This document shows, piece by piece, positions 3,076 to 62,029 of a DNA stretch of 64,000 nucleotides. The stretch spans positions 4,017 to 68,016 of IMG/VR virus record IMGVR_UViG_3300005680_000007; one strand, 5' to 3'. The notes beneath the pieces are model-generated. The model saw only the letters and a list, made by a program, of their open reading frames with translations. It was not told the origin of the DNA and searched no databases. The stretch is from a virus. Position numbers and translations under genes: made by a program. Within the stretch, counting starts at the first letter, position 1, and the number at the start of each line of letters is the position of its first letter.

Positions 3076-3078
3076 GGT

Positions 3079-45450: not shown

Positions 45451-46092
45451 ATGCCCCTGAAAAAATCTTCCAGCGATGCGGCGTTCAAGGCCAATCTGAA
45501 AGCCGAGCTTGCGGCGGGAAAGCCGCAGAAGCAGGCGTTGGCGATCGCCTATCGCGTCCAGCGCGACGCCAAGGCCAAAGGCATGGCGCGCGGCGGCAAG
45601 GTCGGATACGCGCCGGGCGGCGGCATCCCGTTCTATCTCCGCGACCAGGCCCGGCAGACCGCGCGCCCGAGCGGCGGCATCATCGGCTCCGCGGTGCCGG
45701 GACGCAGCGACCGCATTCCACTGTCGCCGAAAGGCGGTTCCTATGTCATTCCCGCGGATGTTGTCAGCGCGATCGGGCAGGGCAATACCGCCGCCGGCGC
45801 GCGCGGGCTCAGCCGCATGTTCAAGATCGGTGCCCCGCCCAAGGGCATGCCGAGGATGCCATCGACGCGAGTGCGGATGCCAAGCGCGAAGATGGCGGCC
45901 GGCGGCGCGACCGACGGCAACGTGGACATCATGGCGGCCGGCGGCGAATTCCTGGTGCCGCCAGAGAAGGTGGCCGAGATCGGCGGCGGCGATCTGGACC
46001 GGGGCCATAACATCCTCGACGACTTCGTCATGCAGGCGCGCAAGAAGGCGATCAAGACGCTGAAAGGGCTGCCGGGTCCGCGCCAGCGATGA
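45451..46092 (+). CDS. Ejection/internal-virion-type protein (putative)
   Basis: 213 aa from ATG 45451. Gly/Ala/Pro/Arg-rich. Lies before the other ejection-type genes. Confidence 0.4.
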   Translation: MPLKKSSSDAAFKANLKAELAAGKPQKQALAIAYRVQRDAKAKGMARGGKVGYAPGGGIPFYLRDQARQTARPSGGIIGSAVPGRSDRIPLSPKGGSYVIPADVVSAIGQGNTAAGARGLSRMFKIGAPPKGMPRMPSTRVRMPSAKMAAGGATDGNVDIMAAGGEFLVPPEKVAEIGGGDLDRGHNILDDFVMQARKKAIKTLKGLPGPRQR

Positions 46093-46622
46093 CATCGGCA
46101 TCGATTGTGCGGCCCGCGGTCCCTTCGGACCGGGACGAAATCTGGCGGCTGTTCCGGCTGCATGCGGAAGAGAACGCGCTGGTGCGGCTCGCGCAGGACA
46201 AGGTCGACTGGTATCTCGACCGCATGCTCTATCCGCACCGGATAGCGGTGGACGACACCGGGCCGCGCGGGCGGATCGGCGTGATCGGAGCCTCGGGCTC
46301 GCTCGAGGCCGCCATCATGCTGGTGCTCGGCGCCCCGTGGTATTCCGACGAAATCATGCTGGACGACTGCATGAACTTCGTCGATCCGGCGCACCGCAAG
46401 TCCGATCACGCCAAGGCGCTGATCGCCTATGCCAAGCACCTTGTGGACAAGGTGCGCGAAGGGCACCCGAATTTCAAGATGACGCTCGGCATCGTCTCGA
46501 CCGAGCGCACCGAAGCGAAAATCAGACTCTACGCGCGCCAGGACCTGCAGCCGGTCGGCGCGCTGTTCGTCTATCCCCCTGCGTCTGGCGTGAAGCCCCT
46601 CACCGAGATCCGGACGGACTGA
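46089..46622 (+). CDS. GNAT-type N-acetyltransferase (putative)
   Basis: 177 aa. IVRPAVPSDRDEIWRLF...VDPAHRKSDHAKALIAYAK follows the GNAT pattern. Confidence 0.5.
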   Translation: MTSASIVRPAVPSDRDEIWRLFRLHAEENALVRLAQDKVDWYLDRMLYPHRIAVDDTGPRGRIGVIGASGSLEAAIMLVLGAPWYSDEIMLDDCMNFVDPAHRKSDHAKALIAYAKHLVDKVREGHPNFKMTLGIVSTERTEAKIRLYARQDLQPVGALFVYPPASGVKPLTEIRTD

Positions 46623-46623
46623 C

Positions 46624-48945
46624 ATGGGATCATTGTGTAAAAGCGGTCCCGCGACCACCACGACGTCGACCAAGACCAAATCGGAGTCGGCCTATACGCC
46701 TTTCGCGCGCGACGAGATGCAGGACATCTACGGCCGCGTCTGGGAGGCTGGATCGACGCCATACACGCCGTTCACCGGCAATATGGTCGCGGGGCTCAAC
46801 CCGACGCAGCTTGGCGGCATCGACAAGATCACGGGCGCGACGAACTATCTCAACACCGCGGCGAATTACGCGCGCGAGGGCGCAGCGCCGATCTCGGATT
46901 GGGAGATCGAACGCTACATCAATCCGTTCACCAACAATGTCATCGACGCCACGCGGGCGAATTTCGCGGAGAACAATGCCCAGCAGCAGAGCCAGATCAG
47001 GGGCAATGCCGCGCTCCGTGGCGCGCTCGGCGGCGACCGGGCCGGCATTGCGCAGGCGGAAGCGGCGCGGCAGCAGAAACTGGCGCAAGACCCGATCATC
47101 GCCAAGATGCAGCAGGACAGCTACACGCAGGCGCTCGCGGCCGCGCAGGCCGACCGGGCCGCAAAGGCGCAAGGGGCTTATGGCTTCGGCGCGCTGCATT
47201 CCGGTGCGCTTGCCGGCGGCCAGTCTCAGATCGGGGCTGGCTCGCTCGAGCAGGGCGTGGATCAGGCAAGGCTCAATGCCCAGTACCAGGAATTCATGCG
47301 CGCGCAGCAATACCCCTATCAGAATGCGCAATTCCTCGCGTCGGCCGGGCTGCCGCTCCTCACCGCGCAGGGCGGCACCCAGACCGGCCAGAGCAGCGGC
47401 ACCAGCACGCAGGTCCAGCAGGCGGCGCAGCCGAGCGTCTTGCAGCAGGCGGTTGGCCTCGGCACCGCGGCAATCGGCGCGTTCAGCGGCAACCCGTTCG
47501 CGTTCCTCGGCGGCCTGAACAGCGCCGCGGGCGGAATGCCATCGACCGGCGCGACCTACGGCGTCTCGCCAGGGTCTTCCGGCATGGCATCGTTCGGCGG
47601 CGTGCCGTATCCGGTGTTCAACCGCGGCGGCCGCGTGCGTCCCGGCTACCGGAATGGCGGCTTCATCGACCGGGTCAACGAGCTCCGGCAGGCGATGCGC
47701 CGCGGCGGCGCGATCCGGCTTCCCGGCTATGCCGACGGCGGCGAAATTCCGTTCTGGGAGCGCTTCGCGCCGGCCGCGGAAGCCGTCCAGAGCGGCGAAT
47801 TCGATCCGCAGGGGTCGAATTACCCGGCACCCATGGCAATGGCGCCAGAGGCCCCCGCTGAGTCTCCTGCGCTCGCCCGTGGGATCACGCTTCCCCCGCA
47901 GATTGCCAGCCCGGGGGGCTCCGGCCCGATCATGGCTCCGGCCATGCGCCCGGCCATGCAGCCCGCGATCGCGCAGGCGCCAATGGCGGCCGACGCACCG
48001 ACCGATTTCTCCGCGCAGCGGGCATTCCCGCCGCGAGCCGCGCAGCCGGGCGGTGGCCTCTCCGAAGAAGCCCGCATGGCACTCATCGCGGCCGGCCTCG
48101 GCATGATGGCCTCCAAGCATCCAAATGCGGCCGGCGCCATCGGCGAGGGCGGACTGATCGGCATCAAGCAATACACGAGCGGCAAGCAGACCAAAGAGAA
48201 GAACGAATTGGCGGCTCGCAAATTGCTGATGGATGCGGAGCAATTCGCCAAGACCCACGATTTGCGCGGCAAGACGCTGGACGAGACCAAGCGCTACCAC
48301 GACATGACGATCCAGGAGCGCCGGGAGGCGGCTTCCGAGCGGTCGCAGGACCGCCGCGATGCGCTGGCCCGTCATGCTTTCCCTGGGACAGGGAAGGACG
48401 AGGACGGCAACGCCGTGCCGGGGATGTATCGCTACGACCCGGACAAGCAGGACTATGTGTTCAAGCCAGGCGCCGCGATCCAGAAGGGCGGCTCCGGTTC
48501 CGGACGGCCGCCGGCGGTGCTGCAGATCGCAGACGCGATGATCGCCGCGCGCGAAGAGGCCCGCAAGGCCAATCCGAGCCTTCCGCCGCTCAGCCGGGAG
48601 GAGGCGATCAAGTCGGCCCAGCGCGCCCCGCGCGACCGCGAGGACGTCACCACCCGCGAGCGGCTGGCCCAGAACCTCGCCAAGAACGACCCGAGTTTCA
48701 CCATCGACAAGGCGCGCGAATTCTACGGCCTGCCGCCGCGCGTGATGCCGGACAAGAAGCCCGCCGAGAAGGGCCTGTGGGACCGCATGTTTGGCGGCGG
48801 GGACAAGAAGGCCGATGCGCCGAAGCTCAAGCCCATGACGCCCGAAGTCAGCGCCAAGGCGAAAGAAGCCATCGACGCCGGCAAGGACCGCAATGCCGTG
48901 ATCCAGCGGCTGCGTGAAAACGGAATCGACCCGTCCGGACTGTGA
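46624..48945 (+). CDS. Large internal-virion/ejection protein (tape-measure-like composition)
   Basis: 773 aa, Gln/Ala/Gly-rich. Ends in a GTGA overlap with the giant ORF. Confidence 0.45.
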   Translation: MGSLCKSGPATTTTSTKTKSESAYTPFARDEMQDIYGRVWEAGSTPYTPFTGNMVAGLNPTQLGGIDKITGATNYLNTAANYAREGAAPISDWEIERYINPFTNNVIDATRANFAENNAQQQSQIRGNAALRGALGGDRAGIAQAEAARQQKLAQDPIIAKMQQDSYTQALAAAQADRAAKAQGAYGFGALHSGALAGGQSQIGAGSLEQGVDQARLNAQYQEFMRAQQYPYQNAQFLASAGLPLLTAQGGTQTGQSSGTSTQVQQAAQPSVLQQAVGLGTAAIGAFSGNPFAFLGGLNSAAGGMPSTGATYGVSPGSSGMASFGGVPYPVFNRGGRVRPGYRNGGFIDRVNELRQAMRRGGAIRLPGYADGGEIPFWERFAPAAEAVQSGEFDPQGSNYPAPMAMAPEAPAESPALARGITLPPQIASPGGSGPIMAPAMRPAMQPAIAQAPMAADAPTDFSAQRAFPPRAAQPGGGLSEEARMALIAAGLGMMASKHPNAAGAIGEGGLIGIKQYTSGKQTKEKNELAARKLLMDAEQFAKTHDLRGKTLDETKRYHDMTIQERREAASERSQDRRDALARHAFPGTGKDEDGNAVPGMYRYDPDKQDYVFKPGAAIQKGGSGSGRPPAVLQIADAMIAAREEARKANPSLPPLSREEAIKSAQRAPRDREDVTTRERLAQNLAKNDPSFTIDKAREFYGLPPRVMPDKKPAEKGLWDRMFGGGDKKADAPKLKPMTPEVSAKAKEAIDAGKDRNAVIQRLRENGIDPSGL

Positions 48946-51900
48946 CCGACATCTCCTTCGACGACCTCCCGTCGGCAAAACCGGCGGATACCGGCCTTTC
49001 CTTCGACGACCTTCCTGCGGCCGCGCCCGCAGCGGAATCGGGCTATGTGCCGGAAGCGTTGAAGGGCTTCGCGCGCGGCGCGCAGGGCATGGTGACGTCG
49101 CCGCTGCAGGGTGTTGCGGCCGCGCAGTCGCAGGGCCCGGCGGCAATCGAACGCGCCGGACTTTCGGCCGCCATGGACCGCGTCATGGCCGGCGAGGATC
49201 CCGCGCAGGCTGTGGAGAACGTGCGCGCGGCACCCCCGGCGCTGCCGCCGGTCACGGAAACGCCCGGCTGGCATGCCGCCGAGTCCTTCAAGAAAGCGAC
49301 GGACCCGTATATCGCGCCCGCGAAAGGCTGGGAGGACAGCTGGACCGGCGATATAGCTGGCGGCTTTGGATCGGTCGCAGCCGGCATCGGCATGTCCATC
49401 CTCAATCCGGCCGCCGCCATGCTCGCGTTCGTCACGGCCGGCCAGGGCGAAGCGGCCGAACGCGCGGTGAAGGCTGGCGCTACGCCGGAGCAGATCCAGA
49501 CCGCGGCCAGGCTCGGAACGGTCTCGGGCGCAACCGACGTGGTTGACGCGCTCCTGCCGATGATGGGCTCCTACGGCAAGACGCTCGGGCTCATCAAGCG
49601 GGTGGGCTATGGCGCTGTCTCCGGCGCGCTCGCGGAAGGCGGGCAGGAAGGCCTGCAGCAATTCATCCAGAACGCGATCGCGAAGGGCATCTACAAGCCC
49701 GACCAGGACTTGATGGAGGATGTGCCGCGCAGTGCGGCCATTGGCGCGATCGTCGGCGGGAGCATCGGCGGGTTCTCTGGCGGCGTGCAGAAGCCGGGGG
49801 CTGCGCCGGCAGCCGAGGCCCAGCAGTCCGCTGTGCAGCCAACTGCCGGGCAGCCCGCGGCCGACCCGCTCGAAGCCTTGATCGCGCGCGAAGCCGAGTC
49901 GCCGGCGCCGGACAATCCCGAACTCGACGCGCTCCTGTCCGATCTTGCCTCCCGCGCGACGGATTTCTCGGACCGCGCGCGCAGCGGTTCTCCGGTCGCT
50001 GCGCCTGCCCAGGCTGCCGAACCCGCCACCGAGCCGAGCGGGGCGCCGATCGATCCGATGTTCGCAGACCTGCCGGATGCGGAAGAAACCCCGCAGCGCG
50101 GCCCGAAAATCACCTATCTGACGCCGGATGCCATCCAGACCGACGCCGAGCGCTTCCAATATAAGGGTGGTGCCGACAAGGAAGGCGTCACCAGCGCGCT
50201 CAAGGACGTCAAGAAATGGGATGACCGTCTCGCCCCGCCTATTCTCGCGTGGGAGTCGGAAGACGGCAGCCTCTACGTCGTCAACGGACACCAGCGCACG
50301 GCGCTCGCCAAGCGCGCCAGCGCCGCAGGTCAGCCGGACGTCTATGTCCCGGCCCGCATTATGCGTGAGGCTGACGGCTATACCCCCGAGTATATGCGCG
50401 CCCTCGGCGCCTTCCAGAACATCGCGGAGGGCACCGGGACGGCGCTCGATGCGGCGAAGGTGCTGCGCGCTAATTCGGCCGACCTCGCAGATGTGCTGCC
50501 GCCGCTGCCGCCGCGCAGCCAGCTTGTCCAGAACGCAAAGGGGCTGGCCGACCTGTCCGACGAGGCGTTCGGCATGGTGGTCAACGACATCGTGCCGGAA
50601 GCCTACGCCGCGCAGGTTGGCAACATCCTGAAAGAGCCTGCCGAGCAGATGGCGGCGCTGGACGTTCTGGCGAAAGGCCAGCCCGCCAACGTCGACCAGG
50701 CGCGGATCATGGTCGAGGACATCCGCAACGCCGGATTCCTGAAAGGCGAACAAACCGGATTGTTCGGTGCCGAGGAATTTGCCCGCTCGCTTGTGCCCGA
50801 AAGGGCGCGTATACTGGACCGCGCCGTCAAGACGCTGCGCAAGCTCGGCTCCACGTTCAAGACCGCGGTGGAGCAGGAAGGCACGCTGGCCGAGGCCGGC
50901 AACAAGCTCAAGCGCGCCGCCAACGAAAGGGCGCAGACCGAGAACGAAAGGCTCGCAGAGGTTCTTGCCAATGACGGGACGCGGAAAGGACCAATCTCCG
51001 ATGCGCTTAGTGACGCCGCAAGAGCGCTCGCCGACGGCAAGCCCATCAATGCCGTCACGTCGCAATTCCTCTCCCAGGTTCGATCTCTCACGCGAGGAAC
51101 TCGTCCGGGCGTACAACGAAGCGCTGAGACTGACCGCGATGGACATGCGCGAGAACCGCAGCAGGCCGCGCTCTACTCGCTCGGACGAGGACAGCAACGT
51201 CCTGTAGCGCCGAAAGTTCGCGCTGAAATCGAGGCCATGACGGCGCGCAATGCGCCGCTGGATGAAATCGTCGCGCACCCTGCCGTGTCCCGCGCCGTCG
51301 CGGAAATGCGCCGCCGCATCCCGACCGGTACACCGGAACAATTGCGCGATCCGGCATGGCAAGCGAAGCGCGTCTATGACTTCGGCGGCAAGCCGGTCAG
51401 AGGATTCGATGCTGCTGCTGATCGTCTGACGGAAAAGGCTCGTTCCTATGCGGGCGGCAAGGTGGAGAACGGGCGCCATGCCGTACTCGTGCTTGGGCCT
51501 CCTGCGGCTGGCAAATCTACCTTCGCCAACCCGATCGCAAAGGCGATGGGCGCGGCCGTGGTCGACGCCGACGATGCCAAACTGGTCATACGCGAATATC
51601 AGGGCGGTGTCGGCACCGTCGCGGTTCATGAGGAAAGCTCTGCCCTGGCCGGTCGTGTGGCCTCGCGCCTGATCGGCGAGGGAGCCAATCTGGTTTTGCC
51701 GAAGGTGGGTGCCGCCGAGGCCAGCATCCGCAATCTGAAGAAGGCGCTGGAGGCCAAGGGCTACACGGTCGACGTCGCCCATGTGGCTGCAAATCCTGAG
51801 ATTTCCGGCCGCCGGAACATTGGCCGCTGGCTCGAAACGGGACGCCTCGTCGACCCGGATTATATTCGGGAAGTGGGTGACAAGCCGCGGGAAGTCGCCT

Positions 51901-54900
51901 ATATTCTGAGTAGAGAGGGTAATGACTATGTCGATGTCGATACCTCCCGAAGCCCCCCGAAAATCGAAGGAAAAGGCCCGCTCGCGAAGCTTCTCCGAGA
52001 TCGAGGAGAGCGCGGAGAGCCTGTTTCTCGAGGAGATGGAGCGCAAGCCCTCTTCTCGCTCGGGCGACGGAAAGGCGTAACGGATCAGGTCGATCTGTTC
52101 GGCGGCAGGGGAGACCAGTATGTCCTGCCGGGCGCCGAGAAGATCAGCGATGCCGAACTGGCGCAGCGGCGCGCGGATGCCCCGCTGCAGCCCAAGAAGC
52201 CGCAGAAGCCGGCCGAACTATTCTCGAACGACGATGCAAGCCAGCTAGGGCTTGGTCTGGAGCCGAAAGATGGACGCCGAGACGTTCGCCAGGGAGCACA
52301 AGGAGTATCTCCAAAACAACCGGCCGGACGTGCTCAAGGGCTTTCAGCGCGAAGGCGACCTGAGCAGGTATCTCTCTTCGATTGGGGAGCAGGCCGAAAG
52401 CCGGATGATCGACCTGCACGGCCAGATGAACAAGCAGGCGGGGGTGAACGACCTGCCGTACCTGCAGAAGGTGGCCGCGTTACAAAACCACCATCAATCG
52501 GCGCTCGAAATCGTCCGCGACGAAATCATCCTGCAGCCGCGGGACTAGCCGAGGCGATCAAGAAGATCGAGGAGCGTTCGCGCCTCAACTATCGCATCAC
52601 CGATTCCGATCGCATCGGCGAAGGCGGACCCAAGCAGAAGGTCCGCGACAATATCGAAGCCGTTCGCGTCCTGCGCCAGATCGAGGAAGAAGGCCGCGGC
52701 CCGACTCCCGAGGAAAAGGCGAAGCTCGTCAAGTATGTCGGCTGGGGCGCGTTCGCGCAGGATGTGTTCGCACCCCACAAGCAGGATTGGAAGAAGGAAC
52801 GCGATGCGCTCCGCTCGCTCCTGACCGACGCCGAATACGATTCCGCCAAAGCCTCGACCCTGAATGCCCACTACACGTCGCCGGAAGTCATCCGCGGCAT
52901 GTGGGACGTGATGGATCATTTCGGGTTTTCGGGTGGCCTTGCGCTCGAGCCGTCGGCCGGCATCGGCCATTTCATCGGTCTCACCCCCGACCACGTCGCG
53001 CCCAAGACGGCATGGACGGCGGTTGAACTCGACGCCATCACCGGACGCATCGCCGCCGCGCTCTATGGCGGCTCCGAGGTTCACGTCGAAGGCTATCAGG
53101 ATCTCAAGCGACCGTCGAATTACTACGACCTCGTCATCTCCAACGTGCCGTTTGGCGACTACAACATCACCGAAAAGCCCTACGGCCGCTATCCCATTCA
53201 CGACTTCTTCTTCGTCAAGTCGCTGGACAAGGTGCGCCCGGGCGGCATCGTCGCGTTCATCACGTCCCGCTACACTATGGACCGCATGGATCCCGCGACG
53301 CGGCGCGAATTCGCGAAGCAGGCTGACCTCGTCGGCGCCATCCGTCTCCCGGGCGGCCGCAAGGGCGCGTTCGCCGGCAATGCCGGAACCGAAGTGACGA
53401 CCGACATCATTTTCCTGCGCAAGAAGGTGCCGGACGAAAAGCCTTATCCGCAGAAGCCATGGCTAGAGACCAAGGAGATCAAGACACCGGACGGCCCGGT
53501 CAAGATCAACGAGTATTTCGCCGCCAATCCACAAATGATGATGGGCGAAATGCGGCTGACCGGATCGATGTATTCGGACAAGGAGCCGGTGCTGGTCGGG
53601 ACCGCGGAGGGATTGCGAGAGCGCATTGCTCAGGCCGCGCGCGACAACATGGAGGCCGGAGCATTCCTGCCGCGCGGCGTGCCGGAGCCGGTCAATATCG
53701 ATAGTTCGGACGTCGATCCGACGCTGAAAGAAGGCGCGCTGTTCGTGAAGAACGGCAAGGTCTACCAGCGCCAGAATGGCGTTGGCGTCGAGCAGAAGCT
53801 TTCCCCCGACGACGTCGACCGCGTCAAGCGGCTGTCCGAGATGCGGGGCACGGTGAACGACTTGCTCGCGGCGCAGCTGGGCGCGAGCGACAAGGGCACG
53901 CCGGCGGACCTGCGCCGTTCGCTTGCCAAAACCTACGAGGCTTTCGTCAAGAAGTGGGGCCCGATCAATCTCGAGGAGCGGACGGTCACGTCCCGCGTCA
54001 ACAAGGAAGGCGAAAACGTCGTCATTGTCCGCACGCCGAACCTGACCCCGTTCAAGGGCGATCCGGATGCATGGAAGGTCTCGGCGATCGAGAAATACGA
54101 TCCAGAGACGGGCAAGGCGACGCCAGCCGCGATCCAGACCAAGAACGTGATCGAGGCACCGACCGAGCGCCAGATCAACGGGCCGGCCGATGCGCTGGCT
54201 GCGTCGCTAGACAAGCATGGTGCTGTGGACGTCTACGACATCGCGGACATGCTGGGCACGTCGGTCGAGGATGCCGTCAAGAGCCTGGGCGATACGGTGT
54301 TCGTCGATCCGGACGGCCGCCAGTATGTGACCGCCGATCAGTACCTTTCCGGCAATGTCGTGAAAAAGCTGGAAGAGGCGCGCGCGCTTGCGCAGGATGA
54401 CGCCTCGTTCCAGCGCAACGTGGACGCCTTGGAGAAGGTGCAGCCCGTTCCGCTGGAGCCGTCCGACATCACCGCGCAATTCGGTGCCCCGTGGGTGCCG
54501 GAGCACGTCTATAACGATTTCATCAAGGATGTGCTGGGTGGTAGCGGGGAGGTCAAGAAGGTCCCGCTGACGGGCGAATGGCGCGTCACGATCAACGCAG
54601 CATCCCGAGATGCTCGCGCGAAGTATGCGACCGATCGCGTGCCGATCGACAAGATATTCAAGGCCGCGATCAACAACCAGCAGATTACGGTGTGGGATCA
54701 GGTCGCGGACGACAAGCGGGAGGTCAACCAGAAAGAAACCGAAGCGGCCCGGATCAAGACCGAGGCGATGAAAGAAGCCTTCGCGGGCGATCCGAACCTC
54801 GGGATTGACGGATGGGTGTGGCAGGACGGGGCCCGCGCCGCCGAGCTCGCCGCCATCTACAACCGGACCTACAACAATCTCGTCCCCACCAATTTCGACG

Positions 54901-57900
54901 GCTCGCACCAGACGCTGCCCGGCCTCAACCGCATGTTCGCCGATCGCAAGCACCGGCTGGATGCTATCTGGCGCATGGTCACGAAGGGCAACACGCTGCT
55001 CGCCCATGTGGTCGGTTCCGGCAAGACCGTTACCATGATCGCCGGCGGCATGGAGATGAAGCGGCTGGGCCTGATCAACAAGCCCGCCTATGTGGTGCCG
55101 AACCACATGCTCGAGCAGTTCGCGCGGGAATTCATCGAAGCCTACCCGAATGCCAAGATCATCGTCGCCGAAAAGGACGAGATGACGCGGGACAACCGCA
55201 AGGCCTTCTTGGCCAAGGTGGCGGCAAACGACTGGGACGGCGTCGTTATCACGCATGACGCCTTCGGCCGCATCAACATGGCGAAGGAATTCCGCCAGCA
55301 ATTCATCCGCGACCAGATCGCCGAACTTGAGCGGGTGAAGACCGCGGAGGCGAAGGAGGCGGGCAAGGACTCGCCCACGGTCAAGGCGCTGGAAAAGGCC
55401 AAGAAGCGGCTGCAGGACAAACTGCAGAAGCTTTTGAACGAGGATCGCAAGGACGAGGGCACGTCGTTTGAGGAGAGCGGCGTCGACTTCCTGTTCGTCG
55501 ACGAGGCGCACAAGTTCAAGAACCTCGCATTCGTGACGCGGCTGCAGCGGGTGAAGGGGCTTGCGCAGGGCGAGAGCCAGCGCGCCGAGGACCTGTCCCT
55601 GAAAATCCGCTACCTCGACCAGAAGCGCCCCGGCCGCTCGGCGGTTTTCGCAACCGGCACGCCGGTATCGAACACGATGGCCGAACTCTGGACCATGCAA
55701 CGCTACCTGCAATACGACAAACTGCGGGAGGCCGATCTTGACACGTTTGATGCATGGGCATCGACCTTCGGCAAGGTCGTCAACAACATGGAATTGTCGG
55801 CGGACGGCCGCACCCTGAAAGAGGTTTCATCCTTCTCCCGCTTTGTGAACGTGCCGGAACTGGTCTCGCTCTATTCCGAGATTGCCGACACCAAGACCGC
55901 GGACATGCTCAACCTGCCGCGGCCGCAGGTGGTGGCGCCGGACGGCAAGCCCGGCATCGAGATTGTGAAGGTCTCGCCATCGGAAGCCGAAGAGCGCTAC
56001 ATTGAAGGCCTGGTGAAACTGGCCGAGGAATTGAAGGGCAAGCGGCCGGAGCCCGGCAAGCCCAATATGCTGAGCGTGGTCGGGCTGGGCCGCAAGGTCG
56101 CGACCGATGCGCGCCTTGTCGGTCTGCCCGTCAATGAGGGCGGCAAGATCGCCACGGCCGCGCGCAACATCTTCCAAATCTGGAAGGATGGCAAAGAGCC
56201 CGGCACCGTGCAGATGGTGTTCCTCGACATGGGCGTGCCGCAGACCAAGGCGAAGCCGAAAAAGGCGGACCCGGATGGCGACGTCACGATCACGGACACT
56301 CCGGACCCGATCTTCGCGAAATACAACGTCGATCTCTATGCTGACCTGAAAGCGCGCCTTGTCGCCATGGGCGTGCCGGCCAAGCAAATTGCCACGATCC
56401 ACGAGGCGACCGACGACCAGAAGAAGGCCAAGCTGTTCTCGCGCGTGCGATCGGGCGATGTTCGCGTGATCATCGGCTCGTCGGAGAAGATGGGCGTCGG
56501 GACCAATGTGCAGGACCGGCTCATTGCGATGCACCATTTGGACGCGCCGTGGAAGCCCGCGGAAGTGGAGCAGCGCGACGGCCGCATCGTGCGCCAGGGC
56601 AACAAAAATCCGAACGTCCGCATCCTTCGCTATGTGACCGAGCGTTCGTTCGACGCATTCATGTGGCAGAAGCTGGACACAAAATCGAAATTCATCGGGC
56701 AGGTGCTGTCCGGTGCAAAAGGCGCGCGTCACGCCGAGGACATTGACAATCCGCTGCCGGAAGCAGCGGAGATGAAGGCCGCGGCGTCTGGCGACCCGCG
56801 CATCATGGAGTTGGCCGAACTCGACCGGAAGGTCCGGCAACTGGCGGCGCAGAAGCGTGTGTTCGACGCATCCAAGGCCCGCGCGGTGTCCGAACTCGCC
56901 ATGACCAAGGGCCGCGTCAAGCAGTATGAGGATGCGCTGCCGGCGGCCGAGATGGACGCGGCGAAGGTCGAAGATCTGTCGGGAGACAAGTTCAAGGTCA
57001 CGATCCAGGGCAAGGAATACGACGACCGCCGCGAGGCCGGAAAGGTCATTCTCGATGCATTGCTCGCGCGCGATGCCCGTTCCTATTATGCGCCGAAGCG
57101 GATCGACATCGGCACGGAAATGTCGGGCTTCCCGCTCGAAGTTGTGGCGCATGGCCGTTATGGGGACGGCGCGGCCTATCTGGCCGTGACGCCCGTGGTG
57201 CAGGCCAGCAAGAATTACAGCGGCTTGTCGGACATAACGATCAACGACCAGACAGATCCAGCCGGCCTCATGCTCAGGTTTGGCAATCTCCTCAAGAGCA
57301 TCGCTCTGGAGCCGGACCGGATCGAGCGCGTGCTGAAAGAAGAGCGCGCAAACGTCCCGCGGCTGGAGAAGGTCGCGGGCGAAACCTGGCCGAAGGATGC
57401 CGAACTGCAGCGCGCGCGCGCCGATCTGGACGCGCTGACCAAGGAATTGACCGGGGCGAAGGAGGAGAAGCCTGCGGAGGCGGCTCCTGCAACTGACGCG
57501 GTGGATACTGAAGGCTGGACGGCAGAGTCCCTCGTGGGACCGGATGCCGGGTTCACGCATTGGCAGATTAGGGACGCCGCCGGGAACCCAGTCACGAAAA
57601 TCGTCGGTGGCACCGCAGAGTCCGCAATCCGAAAGGCAGCGGAGAAACCCGAGGCGCTGTTCGACATCTCGCGCGACCTGACACGGCTCGCCCAGAAGGA
57701 CCGCGGGGAGATCGAGCGCCGCATTACCGCAATCGCCCGGCAGGTCATGGGGGCGCATGTGAGGGTGGCGTTTCAGGACGCGATTCCGCTGCCGGACGAT
57801 GCTGTCGAAGCGTGGGGCGCGAAGGCCAAGGGCCTCTATACCGCCGCAGGACGGTATATCCCGGCGCATCGGCTGATCGACATCGCCATGGCTGACCCGA

Positions 57901-60900
57901 TGTACCGGGATCAGGTCAGCACCGCCTATCACGAGCTTTTCCACGGCGCGGAAAACCTGCTGCTGCGTGACGCGGAAATGGCCGTGCTCAAGGCAGAGGA
58001 CGCGGAGTTGCGGCAGATCGCGGCCGACTATACCGGGATGAGCCGTGCGGAAGCGGCTGAACTCGCGGGCTTCGAGGTCCGCGCGATCGCGGCGCAGGCC
58101 TATGCGGACATGCGCAACCAGCCGCGCTCGGTCGATCTCCTGTCCGGAGCGGCCCGCAAGGTGCTGGAAAAGCTGCGCCAGATGTTCAAGCGCATCCGCA
58201 ACGTCATGCGCGGGCTGGGCTACCAGACGTCGCAGGACATCTTCTCGGACTTCTATGAAGGCCGCATGGCGGCGCGGGCTGCGAAGGAACGGCCGTTCGT
58301 GCGGGAAGCGGCGTCCGTCGTGCCCGGCGGTGGCACACCCACCCCGCAGCAGCGCCGCTCCGTCATGGAGCGCATGGACATGCGCCCGCTGGACCGGGCA
58401 TTGCGGGTGCCCTTCGACGTGTTCGGCGGCACCAACCAGAAGGGCGAGTGGGACCCGGGCCTGCGCCTCTCCGAGAAGGCGGCGAAGATCATCAAGGACG
58501 CCAAGTTCTCGGGTGGCGGCAAATTCCACTGGCTCAATCCCACGCTGGAACGCGCGCGTGCCGGACTGATTGACCGATACGGTCTCGACCCCGCCTATGT
58601 CGAGCGGGAGCGCCAGCGGGCGCTGGACGAGCGCCGCATCATGGGCGTGGTCCCCGAAGTGATGCAGACATTGAAGGAGAACGACGTCGGGTCCGCCGAA
58701 GCGATCGTTTTGCAGAAGATCCTGACTGGCGAGCAAATCTCCGACGCCAACCTCGAAGCGCTCGCCGCGCCGATCCGGCAGGCCATTGATGTATTCGGGC
58801 AGGAGGCGGTCGACCTCGGCCTCCTCTCTCAGGAATCCTTCGACCGCAACAAGGGCGCCTATCTGCATCGCGTCTACCGCAAGCACGAGACCGACCAGAA
58901 CCCGCTGGTGAAGTGGGTCTCCCAGATGGCGTCGACCCGCCGCAAGAAGATCATCGGCAACCAGTTCAAGGGCCGGGGCCTCTGGAAGGAAGTCGCAGCG
59001 AGCACGGTCAACCAGGCACCGAAGGGCTCCAAGGTCTCGATCGGCGGCACGCAATGGGAAGTCCGCGGCTACAAGGGTAAGAAGGCCGTGCTCTGGCGCG
59101 ACTATACGCCGGCAGAGCGCGAGCGCATGGGCGAAATCCTCGACGCCCGCTACACCATCGCCAAGACCTATATGGTCATGGCGCACGATCTGGCGACCGG
59201 CCGCTTCTACAAGGACATCGCGGACAATCCGGAATGGTCGTCGGATCAGGAGCCAGCGTCCGGCGCGTGGAAGAATGCTGCGGAATACGGCCGGCACTGG
59301 GCCGACCCCGACATCGAATGGGTCAAGGTCCCCGACACCAAGATCGCGTCCAGCAACACGCCCCGCTATGGAGCGCTTGCCGGCCGGTTCGTGCGCGCTG
59401 AAATCTGGCGCGACATAAACGAACTTGAGCAGATGCAGAGCCCGACATGGTGGAACACCATCCTCACGCAATGGAAGCTCAACAAGACCGCGCGCTCCCC
59501 CGTCACGCACATGAACAACGTCATGTCCAACGCCGTGTTGATGGACATGGCGGACGTGCGCGCTCGCGATCTCTACCGCGGCATCCGCTCGATGGTGAAG
59601 CAGGACGCGCTCTACAAGGAGGCGGTGGACAACGGCGCCTTCGGCGGCGACATGATCAGCCAGGAAATCCGGGACAACGTACTCCGGCCGATCCTCGAGG
59701 AGATCGAGAACCAGGCGCAGGCCAAGTCCCCGGTCGGCATGGTAGAGAAGGTCATGGCCGGGCTGTTCTCCAAGGGCGCGCTGGTGGGCGCTGCCTATGG
59801 TGCTGCTGGCGGTGCGTTGGTCGGCGGGCCGGTCGGTGCGGTGGCCGGTGCGGGCGTCGGGGCCGTGGCCGGCGCGGCCGCGCGCAAGCCGATCGACAAG
59901 TTCGACGAGAAGATGCTGCAGGCCTACCGGCTCGAGGATGAAGTCTTCCGCATGGCGACCTATACGCGCCGGATCGACCAAGGCCTGACGCCGCGGGAGG
60001 CCGCGATTGAGGCCAACGAACAATTCCTCGACTATGACATCCGGGCGCCGTGGGTGAATGCGGCGCGGCGCACGGTGCTGCCGTTCATCGCCTATACCTA
60101 CCGCGCGACCCCGCTGGTCGCGAAGATGGTCATGACGCGGCCGTGGAAACTGGCGAAGTATGCGACCGTGGCATTCGTCCTCAATGCGCTGGGCTATGCT
60201 CTCTTCCCCGGCGATGAGGACGACGAGCGCCGCACGCTGCGGGAGGAAGAGCAGGGGCGGACGTGGATCGGCGCCCCGCGCATGATCCGCACGCCGTTCG
60301 GGGATGCCAACGGCAACCCGCTGTTCCTCGACGTGCGCCGCTGGATCCCGTCCGGCGACATCTTCGACATGAACCAGGGGCAGGGCGCCGTGCCGGTCCC
60401 GGCGCCGCTGCAATTCGGCGGACCAATCATGCTCGGCGCGGAACTGGCCCTGAACAAGCAGGCCTTCACCGGCCGCCCGATCGTCAACACCAAGACCGAC
60501 GATATTTGGGATCGAGCCGGCAAGGTCGGGGATTGGGCGTGGAAGGCATGGATGCCGGGCGCTGCGTGGATCCCCGGCTCGTGGTACTGGGAGAAAACAG
60601 GGGATGCCCTTGCCGGCGCACGCGATCGCTCCGGCCGCGCCTATAGCCTCCCCCTCGCGCTGTCGAGCTCGGTCGGCGTCAAGCTCAAGCCGCACGAGAT
60701 TGCCGAAGGCAAGCGCCAGATCCAACTGGAATTCGACCGCGTGAACCGGGAACTGAGCTTTGAGCGCTCCCGTCTCGCACGGGACCGATCGCAGGGCAAG
60801 ATTTCGGATGACCGCTACAAGAGCGATCTCGCAGCCCTCGACCGCAAACGCAAGCATTACAACGAGGAACGCCGCAAGCGGCTGACCGGCGAGGACCTAG

Positions 60901-60908
60901 CACCGTAG
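48942..60908 (+). CDS. Giant polyvalent protein: ParB-like nuclease + zeta-like kinase + N6-adenine MTase + DEAH (SF2) helicase + HExxH + glycine-zipper C-terminal region
   Basis: 3,988 codons with no stop. Motif coordinates are listed as separate features. GTG start. Third-position G/C periodicity is in this frame except for the three stretches described in the findings. Confidence 0.75.
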   Translation: MTDISFDDLPSAKPADTGLSFDDLPAAAPAAESGYVPEALKGFARGAQGMVTSPLQGVAAAQSQGPAAIERAGLSAAMDRVMAGEDPAQAVENVRAAPPALPPVTETPGWHAAESFKKATDPYIAPAKGWEDSWTGDIAGGFGSVAAGIGMSILNPAAAMLAFVTAGQGEAAERAVKAGATPEQIQTAARLGTVSGATDVVDALLPMMGSYGKTLGLIKRVGYGAVSGALAEGGQEGLQQFIQNAIAKGIYKPDQDLMEDVPRSAAIGAIVGGSIGGFSGGVQKPGAAPAAEAQQSAVQPTAGQPAADPLEALIAREAESPAPDNPELDALLSDLASRATDFSDRARSGSPVAAPAQAAEPATEPSGAPIDPMFADLPDAEETPQRGPKITYLTPDAIQTDAERFQYKGGADKEGVTSALKDVKKWDDRLAPPILAWESEDGSLYVVNGHQRTALAKRASAAGQPDVYVPARIMREADGYTPEYMRALGAFQNIAEGTGTALDAAKVLRANSADLADVLPPLPPRSQLVQNAKGLADLSDEAFGMVVNDIVPEAYAAQVGNILKEPAEQMAALDVLAKGQPANVDQARIMVEDIRNAGFLKGEQTGLFGAEEFARSLVPERARILDRAVKTLRKLGSTFKTAVEQEGTLAEAGNKLKRAANERAQTENERLAEVLANDGTRKGPISDALSDAARALADGKPINAVTSQFLSQVRSLTRGTRPGVQRSAETDRDGHAREPQQAALYSLGRGQQRPVAPKVRAEIEAMTARNAPLDEIVAHPAVSRAVAEMRRRIPTGTPEQLRDPAWQAKRVYDFGGKPVRGFDAAADRLTEKARSYAGGKVENGRHAVLVLGPPAAGKSTFANPIAKAMGAAVVDADDAKLVIREYQGGVGTVAVHEESSALAGRVASRLIGEGANLVLPKVGAAEASIRNLKKALEAKGYTVDVAHVAANPEISGRRNIGRWLETGRLVDPDYIREVGDKPREVAYILSREGNDYVDVDTSRSPPKIEGKGPLAKLLRDRGERGEPVSRGDGAQALFSLGRRKGVTDQVDLFGGRGDQYVLPGAEKISDAELAQRRADAPLQPKKPQKPAELFSNDDASQLGLGLEPKDGRRDVRQGAQGVSPKQPAGRAQGLSARRRPEQVSLFDWGAGRKPDDRPARPDEQAGGGERPAVPAEGGRVTKPPSIGARNRPRRNHPAAAGLAEAIKKIEERSRLNYRITDSDRIGEGGPKQKVRDNIEAVRVLRQIEEEGRGPTPEEKAKLVKYVGWGAFAQDVFAPHKQDWKKERDALRSLLTDAEYDSAKASTLNAHYTSPEVIRGMWDVMDHFGFSGGLALEPSAGIGHFIGLTPDHVAPKTAWTAVELDAITGRIAAALYGGSEVHVEGYQDLKRPSNYYDLVISNVPFGDYNITEKPYGRYPIHDFFFVKSLDKVRPGGIVAFITSRYTMDRMDPATRREFAKQADLVGAIRLPGGRKGAFAGNAGTEVTTDIIFLRKKVPDEKPYPQKPWLETKEIKTPDGPVKINEYFAANPQMMMGEMRLTGSMYSDKEPVLVGTAEGLRERIAQAARDNMEAGAFLPRGVPEPVNIDSSDVDPTLKEGALFVKNGKVYQRQNGVGVEQKLSPDDVDRVKRLSEMRGTVNDLLAAQLGASDKGTPADLRRSLAKTYEAFVKKWGPINLEERTVTSRVNKEGENVVIVRTPNLTPFKGDPDAWKVSAIEKYDPETGKATPAAIQTKNVIEAPTERQINGPADALAASLDKHGAVDVYDIADMLGTSVEDAVKSLGDTVFVDPDGRQYVTADQYLSGNVVKKLEEARALAQDDASFQRNVDALEKVQPVPLEPSDITAQFGAPWVPEHVYNDFIKDVLGGSGEVKKVPLTGEWRVTINAASRDARAKYATDRVPIDKIFKAAINNQQITVWDQVADDKREVNQKETEAARIKTEAMKEAFAGDPNLGIDGWVWQDGARAAELAAIYNRTYNNLVPTNFDGSHQTLPGLNRMFADRKHRLDAIWRMVTKGNTLLAHVVGSGKTVTMIAGGMEMKRLGLINKPAYVVPNHMLEQFAREFIEAYPNAKIIVAEKDEMTRDNRKAFLAKVAANDWDGVVITHDAFGRINMAKEFRQQFIRDQIAELERVKTAEAKEAGKDSPTVKALEKAKKRLQDKLQKLLNEDRKDEGTSFEESGVDFLFVDEAHKFKNLAFVTRLQRVKGLAQGESQRAEDLSLKIRYLDQKRPGRSAVFATGTPVSNTMAELWTMQRYLQYDKLREADLDTFDAWASTFGKVVNNMELSADGRTLKEVSSFSRFVNVPELVSLYSEIADTKTADMLNLPRPQVVAPDGKPGIEIVKVSPSEAEERYIEGLVKLAEELKGKRPEPGKPNMLSVVGLGRKVATDARLVGLPVNEGGKIATAARNIFQIWKDGKEPGTVQMVFLDMGVPQTKAKPKKADPDGDVTITDTPDPIFAKYNVDLYADLKARLVAMGVPAKQIATIHEATDDQKKAKLFSRVRSGDVRVIIGSSEKMGVGTNVQDRLIAMHHLDAPWKPAEVEQRDGRIVRQGNKNPNVRILRYVTERSFDAFMWQKLDTKSKFIGQVLSGAKGARHAEDIDNPLPEAAEMKAAASGDPRIMELAELDRKVRQLAAQKRVFDASKARAVSELAMTKGRVKQYEDALPAAEMDAAKVEDLSGDKFKVTIQGKEYDDRREAGKVILDALLARDARSYYAPKRIDIGTEMSGFPLEVVAHGRYGDGAAYLAVTPVVQASKNYSGLSDITINDQTDPAGLMLRFGNLLKSIALEPDRIERVLKEERANVPRLEKVAGETWPKDAELQRARADLDALTKELTGAKEEKPAEAAPATDAVDTEGWTAESLVGPDAGFTHWQIRDAAGNPVTKIVGGTAESAIRKAAEKPEALFDISRDLTRLAQKDRGEIERRITAIARQVMGAHVRVAFQDAIPLPDDAVEAWGAKAKGLYTAAGRYIPAHRLIDIAMADPMYRDQVSTAYHELFHGAENLLLRDAEMAVLKAEDAELRQIAADYTGMSRAEAAELAGFEVRAIAAQAYADMRNQPRSVDLLSGAARKVLEKLRQMFKRIRNVMRGLGYQTSQDIFSDFYEGRMAARAAKERPFVREAASVVPGGGTPTPQQRRSVMERMDMRPLDRALRVPFDVFGGTNQKGEWDPGLRLSEKAAKIIKDAKFSGGGKFHWLNPTLERARAGLIDRYGLDPAYVERERQRALDERRIMGVVPEVMQTLKENDVGSAEAIVLQKILTGEQISDANLEALAAPIRQAIDVFGQEAVDLGLLSQESFDRNKGAYLHRVYRKHETDQNPLVKWVSQMASTRRKKIIGNQFKGRGLWKEVAASTVNQAPKGSKVSIGGTQWEVRGYKGKKAVLWRDYTPAERERMGEILDARYTIAKTYMVMAHDLATGRFYKDIADNPEWSSDQEPASGAWKNAAEYGRHWADPDIEWVKVPDTKIASSNTPRYGALAGRFVRAEIWRDINELEQMQSPTWWNTILTQWKLNKTARSPVTHMNNVMSNAVLMDMADVRARDLYRGIRSMVKQDALYKEAVDNGAFGGDMISQEIRDNVLRPILEEIENQAQAKSPVGMVEKVMAGLFSKGALVGAAYGAAGGALVGGPVGAVAGAGVGAVAGAAARKPIDKFDEKMLQAYRLEDEVFRMATYTRRIDQGLTPREAAIEANEQFLDYDIRAPWVNAARRTVLPFIAYTYRATPLVAKMVMTRPWKLAKYATVAFVLNALGYALFPGDEDDERRTLREEEQGRTWIGAPRMIRTPFGDANGNPLFLDVRRWIPSGDIFDMNQGQGAVPVPAPLQFGGPIMLGAELALNKQAFTGRPIVNTKTDDIWDRAGKVGDWAWKAWMPGAAWIPGSWYWEKTGDALAGARDRSGRAYSLPLALSSSVGVKLKPHEIAEGKRQIQLEFDRVNRELSFERSRLARDRSQGKISDDRYKSDLAALDRKRKHYNEERRKRLTGEDLAP
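50105..50470 (+). other. ParB/Srx-like nuclease segment of the giant ORF
   Basis: ITYLTPDAIQTDAERFQYK...LYVVNGHQRTALAK. Confidence 0.55.
51049..51207 (+). CDS. Possible nested +1-frame ORF (52 aa) just before the kinase module
   Basis: ATG 51049 (no SD) to TAG 51205-51207. Over 51078-51156, third positions are 21/26 G/C in +1 against 9/26 in frame 0. Confidence 0.2.
   Translation: MPSRRNSSPRFDLSREELVRAYNEALRLTAMDMRENRSRPRSTRSDEDSNVL
51237..51920 (+). other. Zeta-toxin/AAA-kinase-like module of the giant ORF
   Basis: Walker A GPPAAGKST (51495-51521) followed by VVDADD. Begins at an in-frame ATG (51237). Confidence 0.55.
51922..52080 (+). CDS. Possible nested +1-frame ORF (52 aa) just after the kinase module
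   Basis: GAGAGGG (51912-51918) before ATG 51922; stop is TAA 52078-52080. 40/52 third positions are G/C against 27/53 in frame 0. Product: MTMSMSIPPEAPRKSKEKARSRSFSEIEESAESLFLEEMERKPSSRSGDGKA. Confidence 0.3.
   Translation: MTMSMSIPPEAPRKSKEKARSRSFSEIEESAESLFLEEMERKPSSRSGDGKA
52270..52548 (+). CDS. Nested +1-frame gene: TnpV-like 92-aa protein
   Basis: GGAG (52259-52262) lies 7 nt before ATG 52270; stop is TAG 52546-52548. 78/92 third positions are G/C in this frame against 32/100 in the giant-ORF frame (hand count). The product follows the TnpV family pattern as I remember it. Confidence 0.55.
   Translation: MDAETFAREHKEYLQNNRPDVLKGFQREGDLSRYLSSIGEQAESRMIDLHGQMNKQAGVNDLPYLQKVAALQNHHQSALEIVRDEIILQPRD
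52700..53430 (+). other. Gamma-class N6-adenine methyltransferase core of the giant ORF
   Basis: Motif I LEPSAGIGHF (52944-52973) and motif IV ISNVPFGDY (53136-53162). Confidence 0.75.
54990..56610 (+). other. SF2 (DEAH, SNF2/DarB-like) helicase core of the giant ORF
   Basis: GSGKT (55014-55028), DEAH (55500-55511), ATGTPVSN, and QRDGRIVRQGN (56571-56603). Confidence 0.75.
57930..57944 (+). other. HELFH (HExxH) zincin-type motif in the giant ORF
   Basis: YHELFHGAE. A motif alone does not prove a metallopeptidase domain. Confidence 0.35.
59776..59880 (+). other. Glycine-zipper hydrophobic segment in the giant ORF
   Basis: GALVGAAYGAAGGALVGGPVGAVAGAGVGAVAGAAA. Confidence 0.6.
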
Positions 60909-61211
60909 CGGCCTGCCATCGCGATAGAGCAGCGGCGGCAATTCATCGTCGAACCCGGCCTTGTAGGCCGCGCAGTAATATGCCTGAAAGGTGCATTGAT
61001 CGCGGTCGCAGTCGTCGCGCTTTTCGAGCAGTTCGCGGCATCGAACGGTCGCGAGCGGTTCGGAAAGGCACTTGTCCTCAATCTGCCGGATGGCGGTAGC
61101 GGCCGCGTCGCTGTAGGGCGGCGCACCCTGCAGGACCCGCTTCGCAAGCCCGTAAAGCATCGGCGCGCTCAATAGGGCGGCGACGACCAGAATCGCTCGA
61201 AGGAATGCCAT
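60897..61211 (-). CDS. Counter-oriented secreted/membrane Cys-rich protein
   Basis: 104 aa from ATG 61211 (MAFLRAILVVAALLSAPMLYG... then six Cys). Its 3' end overlaps the giant-ORF stop by 12 nt. Confidence 0.5.
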   Translation of the reverse strand: MAFLRAILVVAALLSAPMLYGLAKRVLQGAPPYSDAAATAIRQIEDKCLSEPLATVRCRELLEKRDDCDRDQCTFQAYYCAAYKAGFDDELPPLLYRDGRPLRC

Positions 61212-61745: not shown

Positions 61746-62029
61746 TCGCCGCCATCTTCGCCACGACCATGCTGGCCTCGTTCTACTGGCAGGGCACGCA
61801 GACTGCGAGCGGCGAGCGGTTCGACCCTGACGGCATGACTGCGGCGCATCGCACACTGCCGTTCGGGACGCGATTGCGCGTCTGCTATCGCGGCTGCGTG
61901 GTGGTCCGGATTTCAGATCGTGGCCCATTCATTCGTGGCCGTGATCTTGATCTCTCAATAGGTGCTGCCCGCGCGATAGGCATGACCGGAGCCGGTGTCG
62001 CCCGCGTCAATGTAAGCATCGTCAACTAA
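61742..62029 (+). CDS. RlpA-like double-psi beta-barrel protein
   Basis: 95 aa. ASGERFDPDGMTAAHRTLPFGTRLRVCYRGCVVVRISDRGPFIRGRDLDLSIGAARAIG. Confidence 0.65.
   Translation: MIAAIFATTMLASFYWQGTQTASGERFDPDGMTAAHRTLPFGTRLRVCYRGCVVVRISDRGPFIRGRDLDLSIGAARAIGMTGAGVARVNVSIVN

Follow-up and report, generated by a model that had tools for sequence, protein, structure and literature searches.

Polyvalent proteins were defined by Iyer et al. in 2017, and their phage versions are encoded next to virion genes; the domains listed for them include a DdrB-type ParB, a zeta-like kinase, the LPD36-methylase-superfamily 2 (SF2) dyad of P1 DarB, and a zincin proposed to process the chain (PMC5512222). Here, we compare with such systems a giant gene at 48942..60908 of a 64,000-nucleotide stretch of viral DNA (positions 4,017 to 68,016 of IMG/VR record IMGVR_UViG_3300005680_000007), the whole of which we call the window; coordinates are positions in the window, and features lie on the plus strand unless stated otherwise. 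Like members of the class of Iyer et al., the 3988-amino-acid (aa) product of this gene joins unrelated enzymatic domains in one polypeptide encoded among late virion genes, and we regard its membership of the phage-type polyvalent class as almost certain: (i) a ParB fold, a P-loop kinase, an N6-adenine methylase, an SNF2 ATPase, and an HExxH zincin occur in one open reading frame (ORF); (ii) on the same strand, the gene is preceded by those for TerL, portal, head, SU10 adaptors, and tail fibres and followed by those for lysis; and (iii) among the characteristic domains, the DarB dyad is strongly matched, the ParB domain is recognised by its fold and by homologues carrying PF18763, and the zincin motif is conserved. 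Unlike that class, it ends in a module of ~850 aa that falls outside the Pfam LPD families searched, and its combination of modules is rare, being counted in just 2 of 162 relatives. On the analysis set out below, the protein is probably a packaged and ejected antirestriction polyvalent protein of a podovirus.

Among the described systems, P1 DarB, which acts in antirestriction against type I systems, is a component of the virion head that protects DNA in cis (PMC5512222), and its incorporation needs DarA, Hdf, DdrA, and DdrB (PMC9144972). The window protein resembles it in fusing a gamma-class N6-adenine methylase, homologous to that of DarB, to an SF2 helicase. P1 DarB, however, is much shorter, comes from a myovirus, and is without the kinase and the C-terminal carrier; the ParB and metallopeptidase functions of P1 reside on a separate protein, DdrB. 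Giants with a DarB-like core are found in the Lessievirus (Bcep22-like) phages, namely Bcep22 gp75, BcepMigl gp69 (4658 aa), and JC1 gp69 (4515 aa), as well as in Ralstonia phages, and Ochrobactrum phage POI1126 encodes another DarB-like giant of phrog_10089, gp30 (4841 aa). Of these, JC1 gp69, whose gene makes up 22% of its genome, was identified in CsCl-purified virions by 51 unique peptides in mass spectrometry (PMC9144972). The window protein shares with BcepMigl gp69 and POI1126 gp30 a collinear order of methylase, middle region, and SNF2 helicase, as well as a short segment that lies upstream of LPD38 in those giants. Unlike the Bcep22-like giants, it contains ParB and zeta-kinase modules, and its N-terminus and C-terminal module differ from theirs; LPD38, present in the giants of BcepMigl (E 9e-35) and Ruegeria phage 45A6 (E 1e-50), was not detected in it, and full-length collinear homology with the Bcep22-like giants, including a C-terminal LPD38, was not found.

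The giant of phage 45A6 (KT820175, ANH49087.1; 3912 aa), encoded after the tail genes of an alphaproteobacterial phage that is temperate according to the literature, shares with the window protein the N-terminal hydrophobic region, the ParB module, the metallopeptidase module, and the segment ahead of LPD38. Its cargo differs, comprising a helicase placed before a small methyltransferase and a GNAT domain, and it has a canonical LPD38 C-terminus. Gp47 of the Shiga toxin (Stx) podophage phi24B (2807 aa; LPD5, LPD1, LPD38, and a MuF-C metallopeptidase) is, like the window protein, a giant polyvalent protein of a temperate podovirus, and it is matched by the metallopeptidase profile; it is, however, without the DarB core, ParB module, and kinase, its profile-search similarity beyond the peptidase is not significant, and its gene lies at the far end of the phage record, past the other late genes. 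This protein was detected in virions, was unseen in the cryo-electron microscopy map, and was proposed to be an encapsidated ejection protein (bioRxiv 10.64898/2026.04.10.717836). The virion RNA polymerase (vRNAP) of N4 is also packaged in the capsid (PMC5512222), and N4-like vRNAPs (N4 gp50, 3500 aa; RD-1410W1-01 gp64) are giant proteins with hydrophobic segments near both ends. Unlike these, the window protein showed no T7-like single-subunit RNA polymerase domain in any library searched, and its similarities to them are short and near threshold. An initial annotation of the window, made from the sequence alone, had called the domain combination and size unusual for a temperate short-tailed phage; this view does not survive the comparison, since giants of 2.8-4.8 thousand residues occur in BcepMigl, JC1, 45A6, POI1126, and phi24B, each of the domains was described by Iyer et al. 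in 2017, and ~2,900 clusters share the C-terminal module.

The DarB-like core (aa 1216-2853; 52587..57500) comprises a GEGG (GxGU-type) helical lead-in, the methylase, a middle region, and the SNF2 helicase. It matches phrog_10089 ("DarB-like antirestriction") with 1650 bits and is 36-38% identical over ~1,700 aa to BcepMigl gp69 and POI1126 gp30; only aa 1216-2853 of the window protein can be aligned to the former and only aa 1216-2826 to the latter. In all, 73 phage records cover at least 80% of the core. Its methylase (aa ~1288-1516; 52803..53489) was recovered by tblastn, PHROG, and PADLOC, matching P1 DarB (tblastn, 29% identity, E 1e-19), PHROG methyltransferase families, and PADLOC MTase_II, and it contains motif I, LEPSAGIGHF (52944-52973, aa 1335-1344), and motif IV, ISNVPFGDY (53136-53162, aa 1399-1407). 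Ahead of the methylase, where the GxG(G/A/S) motif of an LPD36 helical domain would be expected, stand GEGG (aa 1226) and GWGA (aa 1267), with no match to the Pfam LPD36 profile. The SNF2-type SF2 ATPase/translocase (aa 2014-2593; 54981..56720) carries GSGKT (55014-55028), DEAH (55500-55511), and QRDGRIVRQGN (56571-56603), which together span aa 2025-2554, and Pfam SNF2-rel_dom, ResIII, and Helicase_C all score above cut-off on it; a sequence search of the whole protein against solved structures gave only weak SNF2 matches. The gamma-class N6-adenine methyltransferase and the SF2 helicase named in the initial annotation are thus upheld, the former by homology to P1 DarB, PHROG matches, and motifs I and IV, and the latter by the three Pfam families. 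As judged from its sequence, the core has the architecture of P1 DarB, a gamma N6-adenine methylase with a C-terminal SF2 helicase of the SNF2 clade. In defence-system searches, the helicase also gave DrmD-like and BrxH-like matches; membership of DISARM or BREX was rejected, as these matches are restricted to the generic Helicase_C region and partner genes are absent.

The N-terminal half of the protein begins with a doubled FDDLP motif (aa 5-10 and 20-25; 48954..49016 by motif lookup), its two SFDDLP copies lying at 48954-48971 and 48999-49016. Each of the relatives P0046, P0082, and P0142 likewise has two copies of FDD[LI]P; the leading residues of these three and of the window protein differ otherwise, and all four possess the C-terminal module. 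This doubled motif may serve as a short signal for docking or packaging. It is followed by a conserved Ala/Gly-rich region (aa ~100-300; 49239..49841) with hydrophobic segments at aa 145-163 and 264-282, which is common to the giant of phage 45A6 and 33 of 162 family members. A DdrB-type ParB module comes next (aa 398-716; 50133..51089), comprising a ParB/Srx N-domain, a helix-turn-helix-like domain, and a helical extension; its VVNGHQRTALA lies at 50277-50309, with GHQR at aa 449-452. An AlphaFold2 (AF2) model of this module had a predicted local distance difference test score (pLDDT) of 84, and Foldseek against the PDB placed Noc/ParB on top (E 1.5e-5 to 1e-3, probability 1.0, target template-modelling score <=0.55). 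The module is 42% identical over 321 aa to the giant of 45A6. Pfam ddrB-ParB, PF18763, did not match the window protein at E<=0.1; the homologues P0039, P0041, and P0043 of this segment do carry PF18763. On the strength of the model and of these homologues, aa 398-716 are predicted to adopt the ParB/Srx-superfamily fold, with the conserved Arg of GxxR, in keeping with the ParB/Srx-like segment seen in the initial annotation.

Behind the ParB module lies a zeta-toxin-like P-loop kinase (aa 846-979; 51477..51878), matched by Pfam PF06414 (E 5.6e-14; 52.5 bits against a cut-off of 22.3) and with an intact Walker A, GPPAAGKST (51495-51521, aa 852-860); both agree with the zeta/AAA-type kinase that had been proposed here. 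The target of zeta toxin is the cell-wall precursor UDP-N-acetylglucosamine (UDP-GlcNAc). As an alternative to a zeta-type substrate, the module also has a weak match to a PHROG polynucleotide kinase (E 0.0035). A low-complexity linker rich in Pro, Arg, and Gly (aa 991-1209; 51912..52568) separates the kinase from the DarB-like core; it has low GC content at third codon positions (GC3), many indels, and relaxed constraint, with a ratio of nonsynonymous to synonymous substitution rates (dN/dS) of 0.6 and 55 gap columns in comparison with P0046.

Downstream of the core, a zincin-like metallopeptidase module (aa ~2960-3130; 57819..58331) contains HELFH (57930-57944, aa 2997-3001) and, ~50 aa further on, a conserved Glu-containing helix that may supply the third zinc ligand. 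The HExxH is kept in most of 25 aligned relatives and is degenerate in five. With Z set to 1e6, as for the C-terminal profile hidden Markov model (HMM) below, the profile of this module matches the giant of 45A6 at E 2e-29 and phi24B gp47 (aa 1534-1650) at E 7e-7, and the hhalign probability is 99%. The HELFH noted in the initial annotation thus belongs to a family-conserved HExxH zincin module. MuF_C (PF18819) was rejected as its identity, there being no match on aa 2881-3140 even at E<=1; in relative P0015, the MuF_C match falls elsewhere than the aligned HExxH column.

The last part of the protein is a conserved C-terminal module (aa 3145-3988, ~850 aa; 58374..60905) that no Pfam family spans, and no Pfam LPD family directly matches the window protein. 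In a search of 1.84 billion cluster representatives, the module was found in 2912 at E<=1e-3 and in 895 at E<=1e-30; among the 150 matches listed of these 2912, from proteins of 545-5947 aa, the best match lay at or near the C-terminus in all 150. Its AF2 model is mostly helical with a mean pLDDT of 69, higher from residue ~290 of the modelled piece. Against BFVD, the model matched C-terminal pieces of many predicted structures of phage "large polyvalent protein", including that of the vRNAP of the Roseobacter N4-like phage RD-1410W1-01 (Foldseek E 1.4e-5). Within the module lies a hydrophobic segment with a glycine zipper (aa 3611-3652; 59772..59897), marked by Gly-zipper_Omp and by hydropathy peaks, which bears out the glycine zipper of the initial annotation with a near-threshold profile match; a second hydrophobic helix occupies aa 3737-3755. 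Moreover, aa 3657-3764 (59910..60233) align by hhalign (93.8%, E 1.7e-7) to the region just upstream of LPD38 in the giants of 45A6, BcepMigl, POI1126, and phi24B. The alpha-pore-forming toxins AhlB and SmhB, which surfaced as candidates for the C-terminal fold, were dismissed as noise (E 6.9-9.0, probability 0.01-0.02).

The position of the gene also resembles that of known giants. The window corresponds, circularly permuted, to a 67,908-bp metagenome contig (ENA ERZ761594 NODE_36), the phage genome is probably complete, and its source is a temperate-type podovirus of ~68 kb, of which the giant gene takes up 17.6%. Upstream of it on the same strand are genes for TerL, portal, head proteins, tail fibre, SU10-type adaptors, a tail-fibre-like protein, and a virion structural protein; a CI-like repressor, RecT, DnaB, and a separate methylase are encoded elsewhere. 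Three genes of the internal-protein cluster and its surroundings precede the giant: a 213-aa protein (45451..46092), a 177-aa protein that is weakly acetyltransferase-like (46089..46622), and a Gln/Ala/Gly-rich 773-aa protein (46624..48945), a probable ejection protein directly before the giant. Podovirus internal ejection proteins often carry cell-wall hydrolase domains. The 841-aa positional counterpart of the 773-aa protein in L012, the nearest relative, has a cell-wall hydrolase domain, PF07486. While the 213-aa and 773-aa neighbours were found as first described, the GNAT-like neighbour was confirmed only as a gene, its acetyltransferase likeness being weak (PHROG E 2.7e-4, no Pfam match). 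After the giant ORF come, in order, a 104-aa reverse gene, a 149-aa gene, a DPBB gene, an HNH endonuclease gene, a PG_binding_1 gene, and a holin gene just past the window end; the giant therefore does precede lysis-type genes, as had been noted, with the 104-aa reverse, 149-aa, and HNH genes in between.

In BcepMigl, the order is virion protein, acyl-CoA N-acyltransferase, virion proteins, DarB-like giant, small reverse genes, holin, endolysin, and Rz, so that the two phages share the slot of the giant gene after an acyltransferase and virion proteins and before lysis; the JC1 giant occupies this slot too. In POI1126, an N-acetyltransferase gene lies further upstream of the giant, which precedes a probable lysis region. 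Small reverse genes between the giant gene and the lysis cassette have been reported for Bcep22-like phages (PMC9144972); in the window, the corresponding gene (60897..61211, minus strand) is convergent with the giant ORF and overlaps its 3' end, and it encodes 104 aa with an N-terminal hydrophobic helix and seven Cys, with a 42%-identical homologue at the equivalent place in L012. The giant ORF had no PHROG ejection-protein matches, and its agreement with T7 gp14-16 and with P22 gp7, gp16, and gp20 is in genomic position only.

A virion-packaged, ejected multi-enzyme effector appears, from our analysis, to be the reading best supported by homology and synteny, and the functional proposal of the initial annotation agrees in this with current thinking. 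Favouring packaging, its homologue JC1 gp69 and its analogue phi24B gp47 are physically present in virions. From the anatomy and homologies described above, we infer packaging, ejection, and antirestriction as follows. The giant gene would be expressed late, together with the structural genes, and its translation would be coupled to that of the ejection-protein gene before it; a few copies of the protein would be packed in the capsid, guided by the N-terminal FDDLP and Ala/Gly-rich region and by the ~850-aa C-terminal module. At infection, the protein would thread out through the tail, before the DNA or along with it, the hydrophobic glycine-zipper region possibly aiding the crossing of, or residence in, the envelope, and the cargo would act at the earliest moment of infection. 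There, the DarB-type methylase and SNF2 translocase may track the entering DNA and protect it in cis from restriction, like P1 DarB; the ParB-like module may bind or nick DNA, the zeta-like kinase may modify a host target, and the HExxH zincin may cleave the polyprotein into working units. In relatives, the cargo would be swapped freely while the C-terminal carrier stays constant.

Each of these proposals presupposes a genuine gene, and we consider it extremely unlikely that the long ORF is an artefact, be it an assembly chimera or a chance open frame. GC-rich DNA does yield long spurious ORFs, such as one of 1676 aa on the minus strand (55827-60857), whose GC of 0.83/0.44/0.66 by codon position is a shadow pattern in GC-rich coding DNA and not gene-like; another minus-strand ORF of 1107 aa (48723-52046; GC 0.73/0.52/0.73), without a coding-type GC3 bias, is not gene-like either. 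The giant frame itself, however, has GC of 0.68/0.45/0.80, and its translation holds zero internal stops according to the ORF list, whereas the longest stop-free run in 200 shuffles of the ORF averaged 193 codons and reached at most 394, against 3988 observed. An identical giant protein is recorded on two contigs, that is, in two assemblies, the collinear 3924-aa relative P0046 occurs on six contigs with unchanged gene order, and domain matches extend along the entire length. Moreover, dN/dS against P0046 is 0.09-0.17 across the structured modules and is raised (0.23-0.60, with indels) only in the N-terminal region, the linkers, and the helicase-peptidase interval; these ratios are approximate, with dS near saturation. 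The structured modules are, on these comparisons, under purifying selection. The claim of one uninterrupted ORF with a GTG start (48942-48944), coupled through the overlapping TGA (48943-48945) to the 773-aa gene, is accordingly borne out by the ORF list and translation; all ten motifs named in the initial annotation sit exactly where it had placed them (motif lookup), and the domain-wise profile searches gave significant matches, which disposes of the possibility of a protein without domain hits. Across aa 601-1200 (50742-52541), which take in a linker, the zeta-kinase module, and the linker rich in Pro, Arg, and Gly, in-frame GC3 falls from ~0.82 through 0.67 to 0.56; a compositionally foreign insert is one possible explanation, and low sequence complexity is another.

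With the gene taken as genuine, three other functions can be weighed against ejection of an antirestriction effector. The protein could be a late, unpackaged enzyme complex of the cytoplasm that methylates and processes progeny DNA before packaging, as self-modification; the methylase-helicase pair resembles parts of restriction-modification and defence systems, as the DrmD-like and BrxH-like matches illustrate, and a separate DNA methyltransferase in the early region (14901-16154; phrog_67, E 3e-67), which gives the phage two methylases, suggests that DNA modification is part of its lifestyle. We nevertheless find this improbable, as the gene lies within the internal-protein cluster, its translation is coupled to that of a probable ejection protein, a homologue and an analogue were found in virions, and a cytoplasmic complex would have no need of conserved hydrophobic modules that invariably occupy the termini. 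About equally unlikely, in our estimate, is a mainly structural role, in which the protein forms an ejectosome or tail-extension conduit across the envelope with the enzymes as minor passengers, the role proposed for gp47 by the phi24B authors (bioRxiv 10.64898/2026.04.10.717836). Consistent with a conduit, the C-terminal module is the sole invariant part of the family, with a hydrophobic glycine zipper and helical segments, and the cargo is dispensable or replaced in relatives; yet purifying selection is as strong on the enzyme modules as on the carrier, the catalytic motifs are intact, and no fold similarity to T7 or P22 ejection proteins or to any solved pore former was found. A conduit would, in any case, overlap with the ejected effector and does not exclude it. 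Defence of a lysogen or superinfection exclusion, with methylase, helicase, nuclease, and toxin kinase turned against incoming DNA, seems to us very unlikely: hosts may capture polyvalent proteins for such use (Iyer et al., PMC5512222), the helicase resembles those of DISARM and BREX, and many Alphaproteobacteria harbour the C-terminal module in probable prophage regions, but DISARM and BREX partner genes are absent, the gene belongs to the late structural operon, is encoded in the same orientation as the genes for head, tail, and lysis, and lies away from the repressor and integrase moron regions, and the circular permutation of the 67.9-kb contig suggests a phage genome and not a domesticated fragment.

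We also considered whether the two ends of the protein form a cargo-independent carrier for capsid packaging and ejection. One end would be the twofold FDD[LI]P together with the hydrophobic, Ala/Gly-rich region of the N-terminus, and the other would be the unnamed C-terminal module of ~850 aa, glycine zipper included; the carrier would be distantly shared with LPD38-type giants and N4-like vRNAPs, and any enzyme placed between the ends would be delivered into the host through the short tail. This is a tentative idea that we think doubtful on present evidence. At the N-terminus, vRNAP similarity appeared as a phrog_2206 match at aa 168-517 (E 1e-5) and in a pairwise BLAST (E 0.004) in a tiny database. 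If the idea is true, the carrier module defines a large undescribed family (~2,900 clusters) and is a natural, programmable scaffold for protein injection.

Several observations weigh against an ejected antirestriction effector or against its proposed carrier. The case for virion packaging is made through relatives, and what the zeta-like kinase targets and what the ParB module does are at most predicted. A Foldseek search of the C-terminal 1128 aa against the PDB gave no significant fold match, known ejection proteins included, and LPD38 was rejected as the identity of the C-terminus, with no Pfam LPD38 in the window protein or in any of 25 relatives. The Gly-zipper_Omp match on the C-terminal piece, at 27.4 bits, is close to its cut-off of 25. 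The link to N4-like phages is weak, the C-terminal HMM matching aa 3211-3300 of the RD-1410W1-01 vRNAP at E 2e-3 and the N-terminal family profile matching no vRNAP. Some relatives have lost the second His of HExxH, and proteolysis is therefore not essential to the carrier. Finally, 12 neighbour proteins searched by tblastn against seven related loci (BcepMigl, POI1126, and 45A6 among them) gave no matches, so that synteny with known phages is positional only.

Among relatives, the cargo ahead of the C-terminal module is varied and includes ART-PolyVal, InPase, PRTase, PBECR1, LPD3, LPD37, MuF_C, and ddrB-ParB. While the N-terminal region is present in 33 of 162 relatives, the ParB module is found in 17, the DarB core in ~17, and the kinase in five, and P0046 alone has the complete set. 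A scan of a genome collection with a profile from a 9-sequence alignment, a 25-sequence alignment being too divergent, located the carrier module in Aureimonas sp. Leaf454, Azospirillum cavernae, A. agricola, Fulvimarina endophytica, and Roseobacter sp. SK209-2-6; these loci of cultured Alphaproteobacteria are probably prophages. The same scan with the single protein gave no carrier matches. In addition, a megablast of 40000-64000 against GenBank phages returned zero matches, and there is thus no close cultured phage relative. In one prophage relative (L003, 7698-15235), a 768-aa helicase (DUF8437, ResIII, Helicase_dom) is encoded immediately upstream of, and overlapping, a 1744-aa ART-PolyVal protein with the C-terminal module; the helicase is thus encoded apart there, whereas the window protein has its SNF2 helicase fused in. 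In another locus (L014, 17905-21366), a restriction-modification gene of the MmeI type lies ~3 kb downstream of the 1707-aa carrier-bearing protein P0001.

With the window protein, a class already known but hardly studied by experiment gains a well-resolved example, which displays clearly a build of constant carrier and exchangeable enzyme cargo. Since each cargo module is under purifying selection, each probably matters in the first minutes of infection, and the carrier loci in cultured Alphaproteobacteria would make experiments feasible. No current view is overturned, the size and domain set being unexceptional for such phages; what is mildly new is the C-terminal module outside the Pfam copy searched, the doubled N-terminal motif, and the rarity of the cargo set.

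The remaining features of the window concern its lysis, integration, and tail regions. No promoters or terminators were found around the 3' end of the giant ORF, and no tRNA genes were found in the window. Of the lysis-type genes downstream of the giant, the DPBB_1 gene, which is lytic-transglycosylase-like, lies at 61742-62029 and the PG_binding_1 gene at 63260-63901. Between them is the HNH endonuclease gene (62045-62551; phrog_99, E 4e-67); HNH_3 genes occur in L012 at the equivalent spot and within the structural module, which suggests that these HNH genes are mobile homing endonucleases. The sole integrase-like gene encodes a C-terminal fragment of 187 aa (342-905, minus strand) and adjoins an IS1595-family transposase gene (1630-2676, minus strand), whose insertion may have disrupted the integrase. 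Lastly, two adjacent paralogues of 231 and 228 aa at 40710-42085 are both SU10 tail adaptors of PF24175, and one such gene is present among those listed in L012 and L013.

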